Source: Gemmatimonadaceae bacterium
GTDB taxonomy: Bacteria > Gemmatimonadota > Gemmatimonadetes > Gemmatimonadales > Gemmatimonadaceae
Assembly: GCA_035688075.1 (NCBI GenBank)
Contig: DASSNL010000104.1
Coordinates: 6,924-70,923, forward strand
DNA: 64,000 nt
Direction: 5' to 3'
Each line of letters opens with the position of its first letter. The first letter of the stretch is position 1. Positions 3,426 to 58,162 of the stretch are shown piece by piece. A program made the position numbers and the translations under genes. The notes under the pieces are model-generated. The model saw only the letters and a list, made by a program, of their open reading frames with translations. It was not told where the DNA came from and did no database searches.

Positions 3426-3758
3426 CTAGTCCCTCTCAGGTCCCGGCTCGTACTCCAATCCGCCGCTGCCAGCGGAGCCGAATTTCGGGGAGGTTATGGG
3501 GCCCGTGGTGGTGTGAGGCGGGTTGCGCTCCTCGTCGACCGGGCGGTTCTGCTGCTCGCGCGGGCTCGCGGCCTGGGTGCGGCGGCCGTGCTGCTGGTTC
3601 TCGTCGTTGTAGTTCTCGCCGACCGTCTCCCAGGTCGTGGAGCCGGTGAGGTTGCGGTTCTCTTCGATGTCACCGACGAGGTCCTCGCGCTTCTGCTGCT
3701 TGAGCGCGCGATCGACATCGTTCTGCGTGTCGCCCTTTTTCTTCTTGTTGTTTGCCAT
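3426..3758 (-). CDS. Small highly hydrophilic protein (110 aa), hypothetical, possibly stress-related
   Basis: ATG 3758 preceded by a strong AGGAGGGAG. Lys/Asn/Glu/Gln-rich, no TM segment; family not recognised. Confidence 0.6.
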   Translation of the reverse strand: MANNKKKKGDTQNDVDRALKQQKREDLVGDIEENRNLTGSTTWETVGENYNDENQQHGRRTQAASPREQQNRPVDEERNPPHTTTGPITSPKFGSAGSGGLEYEPGPERD

Positions 3759-3794
3759 GCTCCCTCCTGGCTACGAATACAGGGAGTAAGAAAC

Positions 3795-3813
3795 GTGGCA
3801 GGGGACGTGCCAC
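3795..3813. promoter_or_regulatory. Palindrome GTGGCA-N7-TGCCAC, readable on both strands as a sigma-54-type -24/-12 element (GG-N10-GC)
   Basis: Minus strand reads TGGCAC-GTCCC-CTGC (consensus TGGCAC-N5-TTGC), about 40 nt upstream of ATG 3758. Plus strand reads TGGCAG-GGGAC-GTGC, upstream of ATG 3887. Confidence 0.35.
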
Positions 3814-3886
3814 GGTCGGCAGTCGGGGCATTGCTCAGAAGGTGTACCATGGCCTACCTTCCACGTTGAATTTCAACGGAGCTCCT

Positions 3887-4492
3887 ATGGAGATGTCTAA
3901 TCGCTCGATGCGTAGCGCAGTGTTCGGGGCGGCGCTAGCCTCGCTGGCGGCGGTTGGCGCGATGGCCGGTACGGCGCCTTCGCTCGCGGCGCAGGTGGAC
4001 AGCAGTGCAGCGCTCCAGGTGGGCCAGAGCGCGCCTGACTTCACGGCGCCGGGTGCGACGCGCTACGGACTGCTGCGCGATCCCGTTTCGCTCTCGGACT
4101 TCAGCGGGAAGACCGTGGTGCTCGCGTTCTTCTACAAGGCGCGAACCAAGGGTTGAACGGTTCAAATGGAGGCGTACCGTGATCAGTACGCCAAGCTTTT
4201 CAACAACGGAAAGGACGTCGCCGTCATCGCCATCAGCGTGGACCCCGACACGGCGCTCGCATCGTGGGCGCACGACGAAGGGTTCCCGATGCTCTTCGTG
4301 AGCGACTCCGGCGGGGCGATCGGACGGAAGTACGGTATCTTCAACCAGAAGGCGGGACTCGACACGAGAGTGGTCTTCGTGATCGCGCCCGACGGCAAGG
4401 TCACGTACCGCGCGATGCCGTTCCGCGAGCTGGTGGCGAGCGCGTACGACGAATTGGGCAGCGCGGTCGCTCGAGCTTCCGGCGGTAACTGA
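3887..4492 (+). CDS. Secreted Bcp/AhpC-TSA family peroxiredoxin with in-frame TGA (4154-4156) at the peroxidatic Cys position; candidate selenoprotein, alternatively a nonsense pseudogene
   Basis: ORFs 3752-4156 and 4166-4492 are in the same frame, separated only by TGA. The joined sequence VVLAFFYKARTKG-[TGA]-TVQMEAYRD aligns with the Bcp motif [17 protein letters not shown] 3887 follows GGAG, and the N-terminus is a signal peptide (AVFGAALASLAAVGAMAGTAPSLAAQ). Confidence 0.7.
4171..4192 (+). promoter_or_regulatory. Hairpin 14 nt downstream of the in-frame TGA; candidate bacterial SECIS
   Basis: GGCGTAC (4171-4177) / GTACGCC (4186-4192) form a perfect 7-bp stem with loop CGTGATCA, which contains GU. 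The position is compatible with bacterial SECIS spacing. Confidence 0.45.
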
Positions 4493-4688
4493 GGGGGAGA
4501 GGGCAGGAAGCAGGAACGGCAGGGAAGCAGGAACGGCGAGGAAGCAGGAAACAGGAAACAGGAAACAGGAAACAGGTAACTGCCTCGGGGTCGGGGGCCC
4601 ACCTCCGGGAGCCGGTACCTGTTTCCTGTTTCCTTTTCTCCCTCTCCCTTCACTCCGGAGGCAGTTCACTGCTCTCTGCTTTCTTCCC
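4493..4688. repeat. Heptad-armed palindromic intergenic element, copy E3 (asymmetric, plus an extra solo half-arm)
   Basis: Long left arm (GGAAGCA/GGAACGG units, then GGAAACA x4 + GGTAAC), core TGCCTCGGGGTCGGGGGCCCACCTCCGGGAGCC, short right arm GGTACC TGTTTCC TGTTTCC. An additional GTTCAC TGCTCTC TGCTTTC half-arm lies at 4664-4684. Confidence 0.85.
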
Positions 4689-4777
4689 GATAGAGCGACC
4701 GACGCACTGACGCGGCGCGGCGCGACTGGAGAAGGCTTGACTCCTCGTGCGACGGGTTGAATAGTAGGCGCCCGGTC

Positions 4778-5632
4778 ATGAAACAGCGTTTCACTTCCGA
4801 TCATGCCGCGGTCGCGGAACCGACGTTTCCAGGGACCAGGGCCATTGTGCGCGCCATCGCCGTTCTAAAGGCGTTCAGTGGCGCTCGCTCCGCGTGGGGG
4901 CTGACCGAGCTGGCGAACGAGCTCTCACTCAACAAGGCGTCCGTCTTCCGGATCGTACGGACGCTGGAACAGGAAGGAATGCTGACGCGTGATCCGGGGC
5001 GCGATGTCTATCGCCTGGGACCGGAACTGATCGTGTTGGGCGCCCAGGCTCTCCGCTCCGCGGACTTCAGAGCGATTGCCCGGTTGCAGCTCGAAGCACT
5101 CGCCGAGAGCACTGGCGAGAGCGCGACGCTCGAGGTTCTCGTCGGCGAAGACACGCTCATTCTCGACGAAGTGCTGGGGCGCTTTTTCCTTGGCGGCGGC
5201 GGCGAGATCGGGACGCGCTGGCCGGCGCATGCCACGAGCACAGGGAAGGTGCTCCTCGCTGCGCTGAAGCGGAGGGGCGGGACGCTGCCCATCCGACTGG
5301 AAGCGCGCACGAAGAAAACCATCACCTCCCTCGCGCGGCTCGAGCGAGAGCTGGCGCGGGTGCACGAAGTGGGGTACGCGGTGGCAATCGAGGAATTGGA
5401 GCCGGGATATGTAGCCATCGGCGCGCCAGTGCACGACCACGAGGGCCAGGTGATCGCCGCCATCAGCATAGGCGGCCCCACTGGACGTATATCTGCCGAG
5501 CGAATCCCGGCGCTCGGTACGCTCGTACGTAGCGCTGCCGACGAGGTGTCGCGCGGTCTGGGCGCATCGTCGGCCGCCCTTCGGGACTCCAGCAGCGAAG
5601 GACGCGGCCGGGAATCCAGGACGGCCGGTTAG
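4778..5632 (+). CDS. IclR family transcriptional regulator
   Basis: wHTH segment LTELANELSLNKASVFRIVRTLEQEGML followed by an IclR-type effector domain. ATG 4778 (in-frame TTG 4757 is an alternative start). Confidence 0.85.
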   Translation: MKQRFTSDHAAVAEPTFPGTRAIVRAIAVLKAFSGARSAWGLTELANELSLNKASVFRIVRTLEQEGMLTRDPGRDVYRLGPELIVLGAQALRSADFRAIARLQLEALAESTGESATLEVLVGEDTLILDEVLGRFFLGGGGEIGTRWPAHATSTGKVLLAALKRRGGTLPIRLEARTKKTITSLARLERELARVHEVGYAVAIEELEPGYVAIGAPVHDHEGQVIAAISIGGPTGRISAERIPALGTLVRSAADEVSRGLGASSAALRDSSSEGRGRESRTAG

Positions 5633-10247: not shown

Positions 10248-11405
10248 CTACATCAGCTCCCGCTGGGCAGCGGCTACACCGCTGCCCAGTTCTACATCTA
10301 CGCCTGCCCGCTTCAGTGTCATCTCGACGCCGGTGAGGGCGCCGAGGAGCATGAGCTCATTGAGGTCGCCGAGGTGGCCGATGCGGAAGGCTCTGCCGCC
10401 GAGCTGACCGAGGCCGGCGCCGAGGGAGAGGTTGTAGTGGCGGTACGCGGTGTCGATGATGGTGCTGGAGTTCGTGGCAGAGGGGGTCATCACGGTGCTG
10501 ACCGTGTCGGAGTAGGCGGCGGGATCGGTGGCACAGAGCGAGAGACCCCACGCCTCCACAGCCGCGCGGCAGGCGCCGGCCAGTCGGTTGTGGCGGGCGT
10601 ACACGTTCTCGAGTCCTTCCTCGAGGAGCATGTCGAGCGCTTCGCGGAGGCCGTAGAGGAGAGTGACGGCCGGCGTGTAGGGGAAGTAGCCCTGCGCGTT
10701 CTGCTGCATCATTGGGCCCAGGTCGAAGAATGCGCGCGGAGAGTGCGCGTTCTCGCGCGCAGCGAGCGCCTTCGGACTTACGGCGAGGATGCCGAGTCCG
10801 GCGGGGAGCATGAAGCCCTTCTGCGACCCCGCGATCGCGAGGTCCACGCCCCAGTCATCCATGCGGAACTCGAGGCTCGCAACGGAGCTCACGCCGTCCA
10901 CGTACAGGAGCGCGGGGTGATTGGCCGCATCGATGGCGCGGCGCACGGCGGCAATGTCGCTGGTGACACCGGTCGACGTCTCGTTGTGCACCACCAGCAC
11001 GCCCTTGATCTCGTGCGCCGAGTCGGCGTTCAGCGCCTCCTCGATTCGATCCGGCGGAACGGCCGCACCCCAGTCGGTCTCGATGACATCCACGCGATAG
11101 CCGAGTCGGCGCGCGCTGTCTATGAAGAGGTGGCCGAACTGACCACCGCGAACGGCGAGTAGCCTGTCGCCGGTGGAGAGCGTGTTCACCAGCGCCGCCT
11201 CCCACATCCCGCTTCCAGTAGCCGGAAAAACGAAGGTCTGTGCGCTCGTGGTGCCGAACACCTCTTTCAGTCTCGGGAGGATGGCGCGCGTGAGCTCGGG
11301 GAACGACGACGACCGGTGATCGTCCGTCGCGCGATGCATGGCGCGCTGGATCCTGTCGGGAGTGTTGGATGGACCGGGAACGAAAAGAAAGTTGCGACCG
11401 GGCAT
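10248..11405 (-). CDS. Class V PLP-dependent aminotransferase (alanine/serine-glyoxylate aminotransferase-like)
   Basis: N-terminal FVPGPSN motif, PLP-lysine region AIAGSQKGFMLPAGLG, and length typical of the AGXT/SgaA family. Confidence 0.85.
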   Translation of the reverse strand: MPGRNFLFVPGPSNTPDRIQRAMHRATDDHRSSSFPELTRAILPRLKEVFGTTSAQTFVFPATGSGMWEAALVNTLSTGDRLLAVRGGQFGHLFIDSARRLGYRVDVIETDWGAAVPPDRIEEALNADSAHEIKGVLVVHNETSTGVTSDIAAVRRAIDAANHPALLYVDGVSSVASLEFRMDDWGVDLAIAGSQKGFMLPAGLGILAVSPKALAARENAHSPRAFFDLGPMMQQNAQGYFPYTPAVTLLYGLREALDMLLEEGLENVYARHNRLAGACRAAVEAWGLSLCATDPAAYSDTVSTVMTPSATNSSTIIDTAYRHYNLSLGAGLGQLGGRAFRIGHLGDLNELMLLGALTGVEMTLKRAGVDVELGSGVAAAQRELM

Positions 11406-11541
11406 GCGGTGCTCCTGGGCTCGTGCTGAGAATCGGATTGTCGAAGATGCGGCCAGCCGGGAGTGCGGCCGGGGCTGGCCGGTGCGGGAACGCCGCTCGC
11501 AAACTATACTGGGCGCGAGACCTCAAGGAGCTCGTTACTCG

Positions 11542-14397: not shown

Positions 14398-14588
14398 AAG
14401 CAGGGTTCAGGAGGCAGGGTTCAGGGTTCAGGTACTACAGGTACAAGGAGACAGGAAACAGGAAACAGGGAACTGCCTCGGGGGTGAGGGCTCTCCCCCA
14501 CGAGTCGATACCTGTTTCCTGTTCCCTGTTTCCTGTCTCCTGCAGTTGGCAGTCCCTGAACCCTGAACCCCGTAGTTCTGAACCCTCG
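14398..14588. repeat. Composite palindromic element, copy E5 (GGAAACA-type element nested inside GGGTTCA-type arms)
   Basis: Outer arm AGGGTTCAGGAGGCAGGGTTCAGGGTTCAGGTACTAC, inner arm GGAGACA GGAAACA GGAAACA GGGAAC, core TGCCTCGGGGGTGAGGGCTCTCCCCCACGAGTCGA, then the complementary inner arm and the outer arm CTGAACCCTGAACCCCGTAGTTCTGAACCC. Confidence 0.9.
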
Positions 14589-28694: not shown

Positions 28695-29084
28695 CTAGGT
28701 CCGCTCGCGCAACGCGAGCAACTCGCGAGCGGCGGTTATACCGAGGTAGGCGCCAATCAGAGAGACGACGACACTCAGGAGCACGTACGCGGCCGCTCGA
28801 CCTAACTGGCCTTCCTCGAGGAGTATCATCGTGTCGTACGTGAATGTCGAAAACGTCGTGTACCCCCCGCAGAAGCCTGTCGTCAGGAGCCCGCGCACCT
28901 CCGGGCTGACAGAGACGCTAGACAGCGCGTAGCTCATCAGGAATCCGAGCAGAAGCGACCCGGAAATGTTCACCACGAGCGTACCGATCGGGAACGCCGT
29001 TCCCGTCTTCTGTTGCAGGAAGCTGCTGAGGAGGAAGCGCGCGACGCCGCCGAGGGCGCTCCCGAGTGCGACGTACCAGATCAT
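28695..29084 (-). CDS. crcB: Fluoride ion channel CrcB/FluC
   Basis: ATG 29084. About 129 aa, 4 TM segments, motifs GTLVVNISGS and GFCGGYTTFSTF. A fluoride riboswitch lies about 105 nt upstream. Confidence 0.9.
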   Translation of the reverse strand: MIWYVALGSALGGVARFLLSSFLQQKTGTAFPIGTLVVNISGSLLLGFLMSYALSSVSVSPEVRGLLTTGFCGGYTTFSTFTYDTMILLEEGQLGRAAAYVLLSVVVSLIGAYLGITAARELLALRERT

Positions 29085-29160
29085 GGATGATGAGGATGGT
29101 GCGAGGGTGAACGCGGCGTGGCGGACCTGACACGTCCGAAGGTGCGCTCGTGATCGCTGG

Positions 29161-29197
29161 ACACAATAAACTCCCACGTGACGGGATCACGTAGGAG
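29161..29197 (-). terminator. Intrinsic terminator forming the expression platform of the fluoride riboswitch
   Basis: Minus strand reads CTCCTACGTGA-TCCCG-TCACGTGGGAG (11-bp stem) followed by TTTATTGTGT. The 5' arm overlaps the riboswitch pseudoknot strand ACTCCTAC. Confidence 0.7.
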
Positions 29198-29242
29198 TCA
29201 TCAGCCACCTGTCCGTGGCGGTTCACGGCGAACTCCATCGCC
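29191..29242 (-). promoter_or_regulatory. Fluoride riboswitch (crcB RNA motif)
   Basis: Minus strand reads GGCGATGGAGTTCGCCGTGAACCGCCACGGACAGGTGGCTGATGACTCCTAC. P1 is GGCGA/TCGCC, the pseudoknot is GGAGT/ACTCC, and the conserved AACCGCC and GCTGATGA..CCTAC elements are present. Confidence 0.9.
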
Positions 29243-29317
29243 GAATCAGGTTCTAACTCAATCTTACGACCAGCCCGAGACTGCGTCAACGGCCCGGGAG
29301 CTCGTGCCGCCCACACA

Positions 29318-29746
29318 CTATCCTTCCGCCTCACCACCATCCCCGGGCTCCCTCGCCTTCCAGCTCCCCGTGATATCTATCGGCCAGCTCCCGGTGCGCT
29401 CCCCTTTCGGGACGTCCGGGCGATACATGATGACCTTCGCACGCTCCAGCGTGATCAAACCGCCACCAATCATCTCATCGAGCTCCGGAAGGATCGCCTC
29501 GACCTTCTCTTCCGTGTCGACGCACTCGACGATCACCGGCAGGTCGAGAGAGAGGGTCTCTATCCGGTCGGTGTGGATTTTCGAGTTGGACCCGAACCCC
29601 ATGATCGCGCGGAGCACGGTCGCGCCCGCGTAATGGCGCTCGCGCAGCAATTCGACGATTGCCTGGTACAGTGGACGCCCACGGTACTTGTCGCGCTCTC
29701 CGATGTGGATGCGCATGAGCACGCGTTCACCCTTCAACCCTTGCAT
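29318..29746 (-). CDS. DUF190 domain protein (PII-like, commonly fluoride-associated)
   Basis: ATG 29746 after GGAGGA (in-frame GTG 29761 is an alternative). Motif LMRIHIGERDKYRGRPLYQAIVELLRE is typical of DUF190. Confidence 0.8.
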   Translation of the reverse strand: MQGLKGERVLMRIHIGERDKYRGRPLYQAIVELLRERHYAGATVLRAIMGFGSNSKIHTDRIETLSLDLPVIVECVDTEEKVEAILPELDEMIGGGLITLERAKVIMYRPDVPKGERTGSWPIDITGSWKAREPGDGGEAEG

Positions 29747-29950
29747 GGAACCGTCCTCCACCGATGGCCGGCCGCGTTCGCGAACCCGAAGTGAGGGTCA
29801 GCGGCGCCTCTCGCGATAAGCTAGCGCAGGGCGCTCGAGCCGAGAAAGGTCGAACCGGCCGAGCGCGGGGCGGGTGAGCGCGGCACGACTCTTCCATCCG
29901 CTCGGCAGTTACAGGGGAGCGACCCAGAACAGGCGGCGACGGGAGGTCAC

Positions 29951-30960: not shown

Positions 30961-31548
30961 GTGCATAGAACACTGTCGCGCCTAGCGCTCGTCGCTGGTC
31001 TCTCCCTCCTCCCCTGCACCGTCGCGGCGCAGCGCGCCCCCGTACAGGAGGAGGGCGCCGTTGCCGAGGCCGACTCCGAGCTCCCACGCCCCTTCGCGAG
31101 CTTCAACGCGTCGGCCCGCTCGCTCCGCGACTCGATCGTCGCGCTCGCCCGCGCGCAGATCGGGAAGCGCTATGTCTACGGCGGTGAGTCGCCCTCGCGC
31201 GGCTTCGACTGCAGTGGCCTAGTTCAGTACATTGCCTCCGCGCTCCATATCCATATCCCACGCACCGCGCGCCTCCAGGCGCACGTGGGCGATTCGATCC
31301 CGCCCGACACTTCGCGCCTCCTCCCCGGCGACCTCCTCACCTTCGGCAACGGCAAGACCATCACCCACATCGGCATCTACGTGGGCGATGGCCGGATGGT
31401 CCACGCCAGCACCGCCGCCGGCAAGGTTATCGAAACGAAGCTCCTCCGCCCCCCGGCGCGGGGAATCAAGCCCTGGCGTGGCGCGAGGAGGTTGGATGTG
31501 GCGGAGGGGGCAGAGGGGAAGCAGGAAGCAGGAAGCAGGAAGCAGTGA
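30961..31548 (+). CDS. NlpC/P60 (C40) family peptidoglycan peptidase; last codons and the stop lie in repeat E8
   Basis: Signal peptide. Catalytic Cys in GFDCSGLVQY and His in ITHIGIYVGDGRMVHAS. The tail ..GAEGKQEAGSRKQ is encoded by heptads. Confidence 0.85.
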   Translation: MHRTLSRLALVAGLSLLPCTVAAQRAPVQEEGAVAEADSELPRPFASFNASARSLRDSIVALARAQIGKRYVYGGESPSRGFDCSGLVQYIASALHIHIPRTARLQAHVGDSIPPDTSRLLPGDLLTFGNGKTITHIGIYVGDGRMVHASTAAGKVIETKLLRPPARGIKPWRGARRLDVAEGAEGKQEAGSRKQ

Positions 31549-31735
31549 ACGACTCGTAATGCAACGTCATCCCCGCAAAAGCGGGGACCCATGTTAGCCA
31601 GACTGAACATGGGTCCCCGCTTTTGCGGGGATGACGACTGTCGGTGTGCAGTTCCTGTTTCCTGCTTCCTGTTTCCTGTTCCCTTGCCGTTCCTGCTTCC
31701 TGCTTCCTGCTTCCTCCTTTCTTCTCACTCCCTCC
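31505..31735. repeat. Heptad-armed palindromic element, copy E8, carrying a 31-bp inverted repeat in its centre
   Basis: Arms GGAAGCA x3 GTGAAC / TGTTTCC, TGCTTCC units. Inner arms 31565-31595 and 31606-31636 (CGTCATCCCCGCAAAAGCGGGGACCCATGTT and its complement) have a 10-nt loop. Confidence 0.9.
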
Positions 31736-33764: not shown

Positions 33765-33943
33765 GGGGGAGGGGAGAGAGCAGAAAGCAGAGAGCAGAAA
33801 GCAGGGAAACCCCCGTAGGCAGGAGGTCGGTGGCATGCCGCGGGTGCCACCAAGAAACAGGAGACAGGAATGGCCCGTAGGGAGAGGCGCCTGTCGCCCG
33901 AGGCGGTTAACTGCTTTCTGCTCTCTGCTGTCTGCTTTCTCCC
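33765..33943. repeat. Heptad-armed palindromic element, copy E9 (in a divergent promoter region)
   Basis: GAGAGCA GAAAGCA GAGAGCA GAAAGCA GGGAAAC ... GGTTAAC TGCTTTC TGCTCTC TGCTGTC TGCTTTC. The centre contains the hairpin GGTGGCA-N9-TGCCACC and GGAGACA/GGAAACA-like fragments. Confidence 0.85.
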
Positions 33944-35419: not shown

Positions 35420-36232
<813 letters not shown>

Positions 36233-43871: not shown

Positions 43872-44438
43872 TCAGATCGGCCGGAAGCGCTCCTCGAGGG
43901 AGAGCGTGAACGGCGCCGATGCGTCGGCCGGGTGCCAAGTAGGGAGCTCGCGTTCCACGCGAGGGAAGACCGCGTCGCAGGTCCACACCTCGACCGAGCG
44001 AGCATCGGCATCGACAATCCAGTAGAGCGGTGTGGCCTGCTCCTGATAGAGACGCCGCTTGGTGAATCGATCGGCGCGGACGGAGGAAGGACTCAGCACT
44101 TCGATGGCGAGGAGCAGATGCCGGATCTGGCGCCAATCGAGAGTCCGGGCTTCATCCACTGCCATGACGAACACATCAGGCTGAACCAGCACGTCTGGCA
44201 GTCCCCACGATATGTCCGACGGCGACGACAGCACCAGTCCGACCTGCTCGCGATCCAGATACTGGTGCAGCGCCACAAGCAGACGTCCCACCACCATTTG
44301 GTGCCATGGTCGTGGTCCGGGGCTCACGAGGAGCTCTCCATGTACGGTCTCGTAGCGCGGCCAGTGGCGCGGCTCGCGAGCATTGAGCTCGCGGACCATG
44401 TCGCCCGAGTAGAAGTCGATCGTGGCGGCCATACCCAT
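43872..44438 (-). CDS. Uma2 (DUF820) family putative endonuclease, antisense to the permease array
   Basis: Uma2 motifs are present (YETVHGELLVSP, PDVLVQPDVFV, LAIEVLSPSS..DRFTKRRLYQEQATPLYWIVD). Start placed at the internal ATG 44438; the ORF is open to 44588, which would leave only 14 nt before the divergent start at 44603. Confidence 0.75.
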   Translation of the reverse strand: MGMAATIDFYSGDMVRELNAREPRHWPRYETVHGELLVSPGPRPWHQMVVGRLLVALHQYLDREQVGLVLSSPSDISWGLPDVLVQPDVFVMAVDEARTLDWRQIRHLLLAIEVLSPSSVRADRFTKRRLYQEQATPLYWIVDADARSVEVWTCDAVFPRVERELPTWHPADASAPFTLSLEERFRPI

Positions 44439-44602
44439 ACTATCGCCTCGGCGGCTGGAGAGAAGCAAGTGCGGGACATCCCCAACCATGTCGCCGGAGC
44501 GCATACGGAGCATCATCGAATCATTGCACTCTCTACCGACACGCCGCACGCGCGTCGTCATGCGACAGTAATCAGGCTCAATCTCCACCAGCGGGACTCG
44601 TC

Positions 44603-57250: not shown

Positions 57251-57385
57251 CGTCGAGATGCGAGCTGCCCGGGACTGCCCTCGGTCGGTCCGTTCCGTGC
57301 CGGGAATCGCCCGCGCGAGTTAGCTTTGCAGATACCAGGGGGCGCTCCGCGCCGCCCCGGCCACCAACCTCACGAGGTACGAGTG

Positions 57386-58162
57386 ATGGCATCGCTCAAG
57401 TCGCTGTTCACCGGCGGGTCGACTCCCGCTCCCGCATCCGAGCCCGCGTCCGCGCCTGACGCCGCACCGACGACGCAGCCGGTCGGCGCCCCAGAGTCGC
57501 AACTGATCTCCGTTCGCAACATCGAGAAGTCCTACCCGGTAGGGAATGGGCGCAGCTACGTGCTCAGACGCGTGACCTTCGACATCCGCCCCGGCGAGTT
57601 CGTGTCGATCATGGGGCCATCGGGCGCCGGAAAGTCCACGATCCTGAGCATACTCGGCATGCTGGACGGAGACTGGAGCGGCGAGTTCTACTTCCTCGGG
57701 CATCCGGTGCACGCGATGTCGAACCGCGAGCGCGTGGCGCTCAACAAGCAGTACATCGGCTTCGTGTTCCAGCAGTACCACCTCATCGACGATCTCACGG
57801 TCGCCGAGAACCTGGACATCCCGCTCTCCTACCGCAACGTGAAAAAGAGCGACCGCCAGGCGATGGTCGCCGACACGCTCGACCGCTTCAACATCGTGGG
57901 GAAGAAGGATCTGTACCCGCGGCAGCTCTCCGGCGGCCAGCAGCAGCTCGTGGGTGTCGCCCGCGCCGTGATCGCCAGCCCCAAACTGATCCTCGCCGAC
58001 GAGCCCACCGGGAACCTCCACTCGAGCCAGGGCGCCGAGATCATGGAGCTCTTCACGAAGCTCAACCAGCAAGGCACCACGATCATCCAGGTCACCCACT
58101 CCGACACCAACGCGGCCTATGGGAACCGGATTATCAACTTGAAGGATGGGTGGATAGTGTAG
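57386..58162 (+). CDS. ABC transporter ATP-binding protein (MacB/LolD type, stand-alone), second copy
   Basis: ATG 57386 after GAGG. Walker [10 protein letters not shown], signature LSGGQQQLV, Walker [13 protein letters not shown]-loop VTHS. Confidence 0.88.

Follow-up and report, generated by a model that had tools for sequence, protein, structure and literature searches.

When a peroxiredoxin gene is interrupted by a single in-frame TGA, is that triplet the mark of a dead gene, or is it a codon that is read as selenocysteine (Sec)? This question is raised by a locus in a 64,000-nucleotide (nt) stretch of DNA from a Gemmatimonadaceae bacterium (assembly GCA_035688075.1, contig DASSNL010000104.1, positions 6,924 to 70,923 of the forward strand), which we refer to here, at its full length, as the window. 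A first-pass annotation, made from the letters of the window alone, had pointed to two neighbouring open reading frames (ORFs) and proposed that they form a secreted Bcp-type peroxiredoxin (Prx) decoded with Sec. We found an intact gene, strong selection on the UGA and on the hairpin that follows it, and the fold and active-site residues of a Prx, and we conclude with high confidence that the product of 3887-4492 is a single functional protein, a secreted '1-Sec' peroxiredoxin belonging to the AhpC/TSA superfamily.

A single TGA interrupts an otherwise intact gene

The two ORFs (3752-4156 and 4166-4492) were found exactly where the first-pass annotation had placed them, in the same frame and divided by nothing but TGA 4154-4156, and this triplet is the sole interruption of a 201-codon frame on the forward strand that runs from ATG 3887 to the true stop, TGA 4490-4492 (complete coding sequence 3887-4492, +, with the putative Sec codon as codon 90). 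Translated across the TGA, the product reads ..GKTVVLAFFYKARTKG*TVQMEAYRDQYAKLFNNGKDVAVIAISVD.., the asterisk marking the TGA, and it aligns collinearly with Cys-containing homologues of ~197 amino acids (aa). A global reassignment of TGA was considered and rejected, TGA being the ordinary stop of 21 of the 37 genes in the window, the Prx gene included.

ATG 3887 is probably the real start: it is preceded, at a distance of 5 nt, by a Shine-Dalgarno-like GGAG (3878-3881, +; presumed functional), and an independent gene call agrees. TTG 3752 was rejected in its favour, and an alternative start is ATG 3908, the position where homologues begin. The independent call comes from a JGI metagenome contig (L001) whose sequence is the same as that of the window gene except for three substitutions just before the L001 stop codon, and it consists of two fragments of 89 and 108 aa. 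Its presence in L001 shows the TGA to be reproducible; L001 represents the same population and is not independent evolutionary evidence.

At its N-terminus the protein carries a predicted signal peptide (3887-3991, +; ~residues 1-27 or 1-35, the boundary being approximate), recognised by a basic N-region, a hydrophobic core and AMA/LAA-Q cleavage motifs. An equivalent hydrophobic leader ending in A-Q is common to all aligned homologues, solved Prx structures align from residue 38-45 on and leave the leader outside, and the AlphaFold2 (AF2) model of a relative (P0110, described below) has low confidence over its first ~30 residues. Sequence reading and the shared leader are in keeping with the signal peptide that the first-pass annotation had noted.

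The UGA occupies the catalytic position of a Cys-free peroxiredoxin

UGA 4154-4156 (+), the putative Sec codon, stands at the peroxidatic position. In alignments it is matched by the peroxidatic Cys in M. tuberculosis AhpE (..FFPLAFTGIC.. vs. ..FFYKARTKG*..) and lies in a column that is an invariant Cys in 22 homologues, which confirms the earlier proposal that the stop codon lies on the catalytic Cys; it also pairs with TGC/Cys in 114 database homologues and in three further Cys-encoding loci (L082, L083 and L168). The match to the Pfam family AhpC-TSA spans the TGA (residues 45-174; 1.7e-29; 102.7 bits vs. a cutoff of 26), as does a match to Redoxin.

The motif around the UGA, Y-K-A-R-T-K-G-U (4133-4156, +), is the counterpart of PxxxTxxC in alignments. 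Tyr (TAC 4133-4135, residue 83) stands where the canonical motif has Pro, so that the window protein lacks the Pro of PxxxTxxC(U), a second active-site deviation beside the TGA that the first-pass annotation had overlooked. The set of Thr, peroxidatic residue and distal Arg is complete, with the near-invariant T87 (codon 4145-4147), U90 at the Cys position, and R161 (codon 4367-4369, +, downstream of the UGA), which is invariant in the alignment and matches the Arg of ..GIANRGTFVV.. in AhpE. The protein contains zero Cys, so that Sec90 would be its only redox-active residue and its mechanism would be of the 1-Cys type, as in AhpE.

The fold was assessed on the AF2 model of P0110, a close relative with Cys at the catalytic position and Tyr in place of Pro (predicted local distance difference test, pLDDT, 88 overall and >90 over the mature domain). 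Fold searches with this model returned Bcp4, AhpE and Prx structures at a probability of 1.00, Sulfolobus Bcp4 being the top Foldseek match, and the comparison with AhpE gave the highest identity (31-34%) and the lowest root-mean-square deviation (2.4-2.8 Å), with a template-modelling (TM) score of 0.78-0.86 when normalised to target length. By sequence, AhpE is likewise the best match among solved structures (E = 1e-14). Examined for membership of the AhpE type, the window protein has a single Sec, no Cys and AhpE as its best PDB match, yet BCP-type entries score about equally. Against NCBIfam models it reached 82.3 bits for PrxU (NF040737; cutoff 270), 27.8 bits for Prx-SUH (NF045827; cutoff 298; no CxxU is present), and 60.8 bits for the E. 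coli Bcp equivalog (NF006960; cutoff 140; no second Cys is present). With 82 bits against a cutoff of 270 the protein is therefore not PrxU. Of the earlier 'Bcp-type' label, the assignment to the AhpC/TSA family stood, and the Bcp subtype proved to be loose, the score being below the NF006960 cutoff and the nearest solved relative being AhpE.

The TGA and the protein encoded behind it are conserved

Full-length database homologues (~197 aa, from Gemmatimonadota, with identities of no more than 67%) invariably have Cys at the TGA position, and Pro in FFP(K/R)ARTxGC. Two collections were scanned as DNA rather than as called proteins: the codon is TGA in all of the best 80 metagenome loci (80/80; 53-72% identity) and in 79 of the best 80 loci from GTDB species representatives, the exception (L163) encoding Cys. 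TGA is thus found in 159/160 relatives that share 49-76% protein identity with the window gene; an alignment of this kind had been suggested in the first-pass annotation, and the outcome that would have spoken against a Sec codon, namely TGC and no hairpin in close relatives, is contradicted. All 80 of the GTDB-species loci are from metagenome-assembled genomes (MAGs), nearly all titled Gemmatimonadaceae, Gemmatimonadales or Gemmatimonadota, with a few titled just 'bacterium' and one Candidatus Carthagonibacter. The peptide pattern used in the scan, QMEAYRDQ, favours members of this clade by their amino acids; because its nucleotide sequence is degenerate, it cannot generate the nucleotide conservation that we describe below.

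Codons were analysed in 77 Sec-form sequences, <95% identical to one another and with 59-74% nucleotide identity to the window. On either side of the TGA, amino acids are kept and codons vary (~1-2 bits of entropy at fourfold and sixfold codons). The region 3' of the TGA retains all 41 invariant family residues, and the conserved residues with varied codons there comprise W, Gly, Leu and Arg161, the last an invariant Arg in all 77. Conserved residues with varied codons 3' of the UGA indicate, therefore, that the translated product is under purifying selection.

Four database proteins have 'W' or 'L' at the Sec position, and one of each kind was traced to its DNA. The 'W' of P0063 was dismissed as a translation-table artefact, since the DNA (L167; JGI Ga0526441_067991) reads TGA and the deposited protein Trp; JGI annotation sometimes translates the Prx TGA in this way. 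The 'L' of P0049 is a real TTA (Leu) in a contig of 1.6x coverage (L166; ENA contig NODE_137323), with the hairpin intact and a C-G closing pair, and reflects a sequencing error or else an allele that has been inactivated.

A near-invariant hairpin is specific to UGA forms

The hairpin reported in the first-pass annotation was recovered as GGCGTAC-CGTGATCA-GTACGCC, 22 nt at 4171-4192 (+), beginning 14 nt past the TGA, with a perfect 7-bp stem (GGCGUAC/GUACGCC), an 8-nt loop (CGUGAUCA; G at position 2, then U) and a minimum free energy (MFE) of -10.3 kcal/mol. We regard it as the putative apical hairpin of a bacterial Sec insertion sequence (bSECIS) element. The published bSECIS model, in the form in which passages of PMC13188914 quote it, has four criteria, and the hairpin agrees with all four in its 7-bp stem, its 8-nt loop, its 21 nt from UGA to loop and its -10.3 kcal/mol. 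Taken as a single sequence, the region is unremarkable (z = -1.5; 13/200 shuffles fold equally well), so that the significance of the hairpin derives only from comparative data.

Among 163 UGA-form sequences, the hairpin is identical in 142. Stem pairs 2-7 are paired in 163/163, with one G-C to G-U change, the closing pair is G-C in 148, A-U in 3, U-A in 1, C-G in 1, AA in 7 and AC in 3, and loop variants are limited to two positions (CGGGAUCA in 5 and CGUGACCA in 3). The RNAalifold consensus consists of this invariant apical hairpin alone. A lower stem between UGAA 4154-4157 and UUCA 4199-4202 may possibly extend it: both halves are present in 148/163, and the pairing appears in the MFE fold of the window and is absent from the RNAalifold consensus. 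No second SECIS-like hairpin was found across the window and the related Prx-flanking DNA that we searched.

The hairpin is contained in a nucleotide-conserved block (4163-4204, +; CAA ATG GAG GCG TAC CGT GAT CAG TAC GCC AAG CTT TTC AAC, with ACG/AAG across relatives at the codon before CTN). In the 77 sequences the synonymous entropy of codons +3 to +16 past the TGA is ~0 (0.00-0.24 bits), the CTN Leu codon excepted (1.07), and some of the codons frozen in this way are minority choices in this genome (CAA 10%, CGT 10%, GAT 33%). The Cys forms L082, L083 and L168 encode a near-identical peptide (..TVQMETYRDQYA..) with CAG, CGC, GAC/GAT, TAT and so on, and their equivalent segment folds at just -0.7 to -3.4 kcal/mol and contains no hairpin. 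The hairpin is missing from Cys forms and is therefore an element specific to UGA forms, as a SECIS would be.

Weighing the alternatives

Several points weigh against our conclusion. No tRNA-Sec, nor any tRNA at all, was found in the window (ARAGORN, Rfam), none was found in the related loci (ARAGORN), and SelA, SelB and SelD had no match in the window or in the ~1.2 Mb of related Prx-flanking DNA (tblastn with E. coli probes from NC_000913.3); sel genes need not be linked to Prx, however, so that their absence near Prx is uninformative rather than negative. In selenoproteome surveys, reviews and literature text searches we found no mention or report of Sec use in Gemmatimonadota. The signal peptide of the window protein was judged by eye, the canonical Prx Pro is missing, and the peroxidase chemistry is assumed by homology. 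The near-invariance of the hairpin also limits what can be learned from covariation, which is seen only at the closing pair, itself mismatched in 10/163 sequences. Of two further scans, a generic one of flanking genes for Sec/Cys pairs, dominated by spurious antisense ORFs, gave no second candidate, and a scan of the window for further in-frame TGA joins by G+C content at third codon positions (GC3) was not discriminating.

As a separate observation, ARAGORN made long tRNA calls just after the Prx gene in three related loci (L020 777-874, -; L021 692-789, -; L120 10657-10743, +). These odd calls, 'tRNA-Leu(cag)' of 98 nt and 'tRNA-Gly(gcc)' of 87 nt, were considered as mis-called tRNA-Sec; Rfam does not match those in L020 and L021 to any tRNA, and they are probably false positives from structured intergenic repeats.

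The first-pass annotation had itself named one alternative, a nonsense pseudogene in which a TGC-to-TGA change killed a Cys-peroxiredoxin gene and left the ORFs as decaying remnants. Close full-length TGC homologues do exist, one transversion suffices for the change, the window copy has lost its active-site Pro as well, and annotators call two fragments. However, the same TGA recurs in nearly all of the relatives, which differ by 26-41% in nucleotides, the invariant residues 3' of it are retained with varying codons, and the nucleotide-conserved block follows it solely in TGA forms. Such persistence across a whole family is not possible for a decaying gene, and the divergence excludes assembly chimeras; the conservation of the TGA, the downstream protein and the hairpin contradicts this explanation, and we consider it extremely improbable. 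Hardly credible, too, is a split enzyme, in which translation would terminate at the UGA and restart at the conserved ATG 4166 to yield two assembling polypeptides. ATG 4166-4168 is invariant, lies 9 nt past the TGA, and would give one of the two products that gene callers predict, but Cys forms preserve this Met just as strictly (Q93 and M94 are both invariant), and M94 is therefore a structural residue rather than a restart signal. A split would also delete the catalytic residue, place a C-terminal half without signal peptide in a compartment other than that of the N-terminal half, and leave the SECIS-like hairpin downstream of the ATG unexplained.

Programmed read-through of the UGA without selenium, by near-cognate tRNA-Trp or tRNA-Cys or by Cys-charged tRNA-Sec, would insert Trp or Cys. 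Read-through of stop codons can in general be promoted by structures that lie downstream, and the lack of Sec machinery in the window and flanking DNA and the silence of reviews and surveys on Gemmatimonadota are in keeping with it. At the catalytic Cys position, however, activity would require Cys or Sec, a single mutation would turn the codon into TGC, and there is no rationale for an inefficient UGA-as-Cys in ~160 lineages; moreover, the hairpin fits the SelB-type bSECIS model on the four criteria as quoted, and the loss of Pro, correlated with UGA forms (see below), suggests a chemistry unlike that of Cys forms. We judge this read-through to be unlikely. A Sec-decoded peroxiredoxin, not two fragments, is supported by the near-universal TGA, the hairpin confined to UGA forms, and the selection 3' of the TGA, and Sec is favoured over other read-through residues because the codon occupies the catalytic position, the geometry of the hairpin is of the SelB type, and Sec-peroxiredoxins are already known.

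A proposed mechanism and a candidate reductant

For the Sec-decoded peroxiredoxin we propose that the hairpin at 4171-4192 would act as SECIS and recruit SelB-GTP-Sec-tRNA(Sec), so that Sec would be inserted at UGA 4154-4156 with no termination and translation would run on to the real stop at 4490-4492. The signal peptide would direct the protein across the cytoplasmic membrane, and selenolate 90, placed by Thr87 and Arg161, would reduce peroxides and be converted to a selenenic acid. Without any Cys the protein lacks a resolving residue, as in 1-Cys peroxiredoxins like AhpE, so that recycling would require an external reductant, for which a periplasmic TlpA-like thioredoxin fed by CcdA/DsbD is a good candidate.

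At 50/160 Sec-form loci, convergent genes for a TlpA-like thioredoxin and a CcdA/DsbD_TM membrane protein lie just downstream of Prx. The TlpA-like protein has a WCPNC motif and matches the Pfam families Redoxin, AhpC-TSA and Thioredoxin; related loci with the pair are, e.g., L096 and L129, at ~2 kb or less downstream of the Prx TGA, and L168/L169. The pair also adjoins a Cys form, and it is absent from the window. From the position of the pair beside Prx it is reasonable to hypothesise that electrons pass from CcdA through TlpA to Prx.

The neighbours of Prx in the window are a gene for a small hydrophilic protein (3426-3758, -) and an IclR regulator (4757-5632). The former gene is divergently oriented and is also called on L001; its product, of 110 aa, is highly charged and of low complexity (MANNKKKKGDTQ...) and has no Pfam or NCBIfam family. 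A class-V aminotransferase ~6 kb from Prx (10248-11522, -) was considered as a selenocysteine lyase/cysteine desulfurase and rejected: it is nearest to the L-aspartate-glyoxylate aminotransferase BhcA (555 bits against a cutoff of 650) and has no link to selenium.

Loss of the active-site Pro accompanies the UGA

A census of the active-site motif found Pro in 117/118 Cys forms vs. 21/165 Sec forms, so that it is replaced in 1% of the former and in 87% of the latter. Its replacements in Sec forms are Y (72), F (56), I (12), V (2), S (1) and A (1), and the single non-Pro Cys form is P0110, with Tyr. Pro is assumed to act as a shield for the peroxidatic residue, and Sec resists irreversible over-oxidation; we speculate that this resistance could relax the constraint on Pro.

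In a crude neighbour-joining tree, Sec and Cys forms are interleaved and the internal branches are very short, and in a nearest-neighbour test 164/165 Sec forms are closest to another Sec form and the groups separate. Both forms occupy the same neighbourhood, with DUF4147/MOFRL (glycerate-kinase-like), CN-hydrolase and agmatine deiminase genes downstream. It is possible, and we offer this as a tentative and rather doubtful proposal, that the change from Cys to Sec made Pro dispensable, giving rise to a mechanistically distinct secreted '1-Sec' peroxidase that is recycled by a TlpA/CcdA relay, with Sec decoding near-universal in soil Gemmatimonadaceae.

One MAG (L153; LacPavin_0818_WC50_MAG_63_9) holds a natural Sec/Cys pair in a single genome, with a Cys paralogue (CTAQMTHYRDLW; Cys codon at 714) and a Sec form (U-TVQMEAYRDQYA; TGA at 1268) in tandem on the same strand.

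Other features of the window

A palindromic intergenic element (4493-4650) lies directly after the Prx stop and is composed of heptamers, (CAGGAAA/CAGGAAG)n, and an inverted pyrimidine-rich arm (arms at 4546-4583 and 4611-4637). The same repeat is also present at 2449-2540, 14445-14542, 31522-31709 and 33851-33868, and the motif CAGGAAACAGGAAACAGG (<=2 mismatches) has 19 matches at at least five window sites, mostly intergenic, with 0 expected by chance. The element looks like a REP-like (repetitive extragenic palindromic) or terminator-like repeat family, and similar purine-rich repeats adjoin Prx in other Gemmatimonadaceae loci, e.g. L088.

A fluoride riboswitch (29185-29251, -; Rfam RF01734, 61.7 bits, E = 1e-14) stands immediately upstream of the fluoride channel gene crcB (28695-29177, -), with a DUF190 gene at 29318-29761 (-). 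Further along, eight consecutive paralogous genes (36468-57250, +) encode proteins of ~800-830 aa each, and the two of them that were scanned are ADOP-family duplicated permeases (MacB_PCD + FtsX; TIGR03434, 968 bits). The array is broken by a Uma2-family gene (43872-44588, -), and ABC ATPase genes lie on its two flanks (35420-36232 and 57326-58162).

Significance and comparison with known systems

Sec-containing peroxiredoxins (PF00578, TxxU) are an established bacterial selenoprotein class, as the first-pass annotation had stated for AhpC/TSA proteins (PMC13188914, PMC9312934, PMC5029168). They have been counted among the 20 most widespread bacterial selenoprotein families, in 78 organisms (PMC5029168), and passages of PMC13188914 and PMC9312934 cite experimental verification by Sohling 2001. 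What is new here is a large, family-wide Gemmatimonadaceae clade of ~160 soil lineages with a predicted secreted, Cys-free architecture, a frequent loss of the 'highly conserved' Pro, and a remarkably invariant putative SECIS; current annotation does not recognise the clade. The best 120 database matches to the C-terminal half are all fragments of 105-121 aa, named 'redoxin domain-containing protein', 'peroxiredoxin Q/BCP' or 'hypothetical protein'; public entries hold hundreds of truncated fragments, and NCBI's two selenoprotein Prx models miss the clade. In most Gemmatimonadaceae genomes the annotation would be mended by a dedicated model that allows for Sec as an exception.

The gene implies a working Sec insertion system in an abundant and mostly uncultured soil family, and this in turn suggests a selenium requirement for envelope peroxide defence in Gemmatimonadaceae. 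The natural Sec and Cys forms, with their correlated non-Pro and Pro motifs, offer a ready comparison for the benefit of Sec and the role of Pro, and the near-invariant hairpin from ~160 lineages is a clean probe for other selenoproteins and for the cognate SelB.

Among known systems, the Sec-Prx family, with PrxU of Eubacterium acidaminophilum, shares with the window protein the AhpC/TSA domain, the T-x-x-U motif, an in-frame SECIS hairpin past the UGA, and the existence of Cys homologues. The window protein differs in its signal peptide, in its lack of Cys (1-Sec type) and in its 82 bits where 270 are demanded; PrxU comes from a strict anaerobe, whereas the Gemmatimonadaceae protein belongs to aerobic soil. 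Sec forms of Gemmatimonadaceae are, moreover, mostly without Pro, in contrast to the 'highly conserved PxxxTxxU' of the family (PMC13188914). The Prx-like thiol:disulfide oxidoreductases (UxxC), the cd02970 peroxiredoxin-like proteins (UxxS) and Prx-SUH (CxxU, NF045827) are thioredoxin-fold selenoproteins of the same Pfam clan, but their Sec motif and its position differ, the protein described here having TxxU followed by TVQ and neither CxxU nor UxxC.

Typical BCPs have a resolving Cys five residues after the peroxidatic Cys. The BCP/PrxQ proteins (E. coli Bcp, Sulfolobus Bcp1/Bcp4) share the fold of the window protein and a local motif like ..FYPKAxTxGCT.., and JGI gives the fragments the name 'peroxiredoxin Q/BCP'; the window protein, by contrast, is predicted to be secreted and to contain Sec, has no resolving Cys, and lies below the Bcp cutoff. 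AhpE of M. tuberculosis (Rv2238c) likewise has one redox-active residue and no resolving Cys, with the Thr and Arg conserved; it is, however, a cytoplasmic Cys enzyme that keeps the Pro of PxxxTxxC, and only ~1/3 of its residues are identical to those of the window-type protein.

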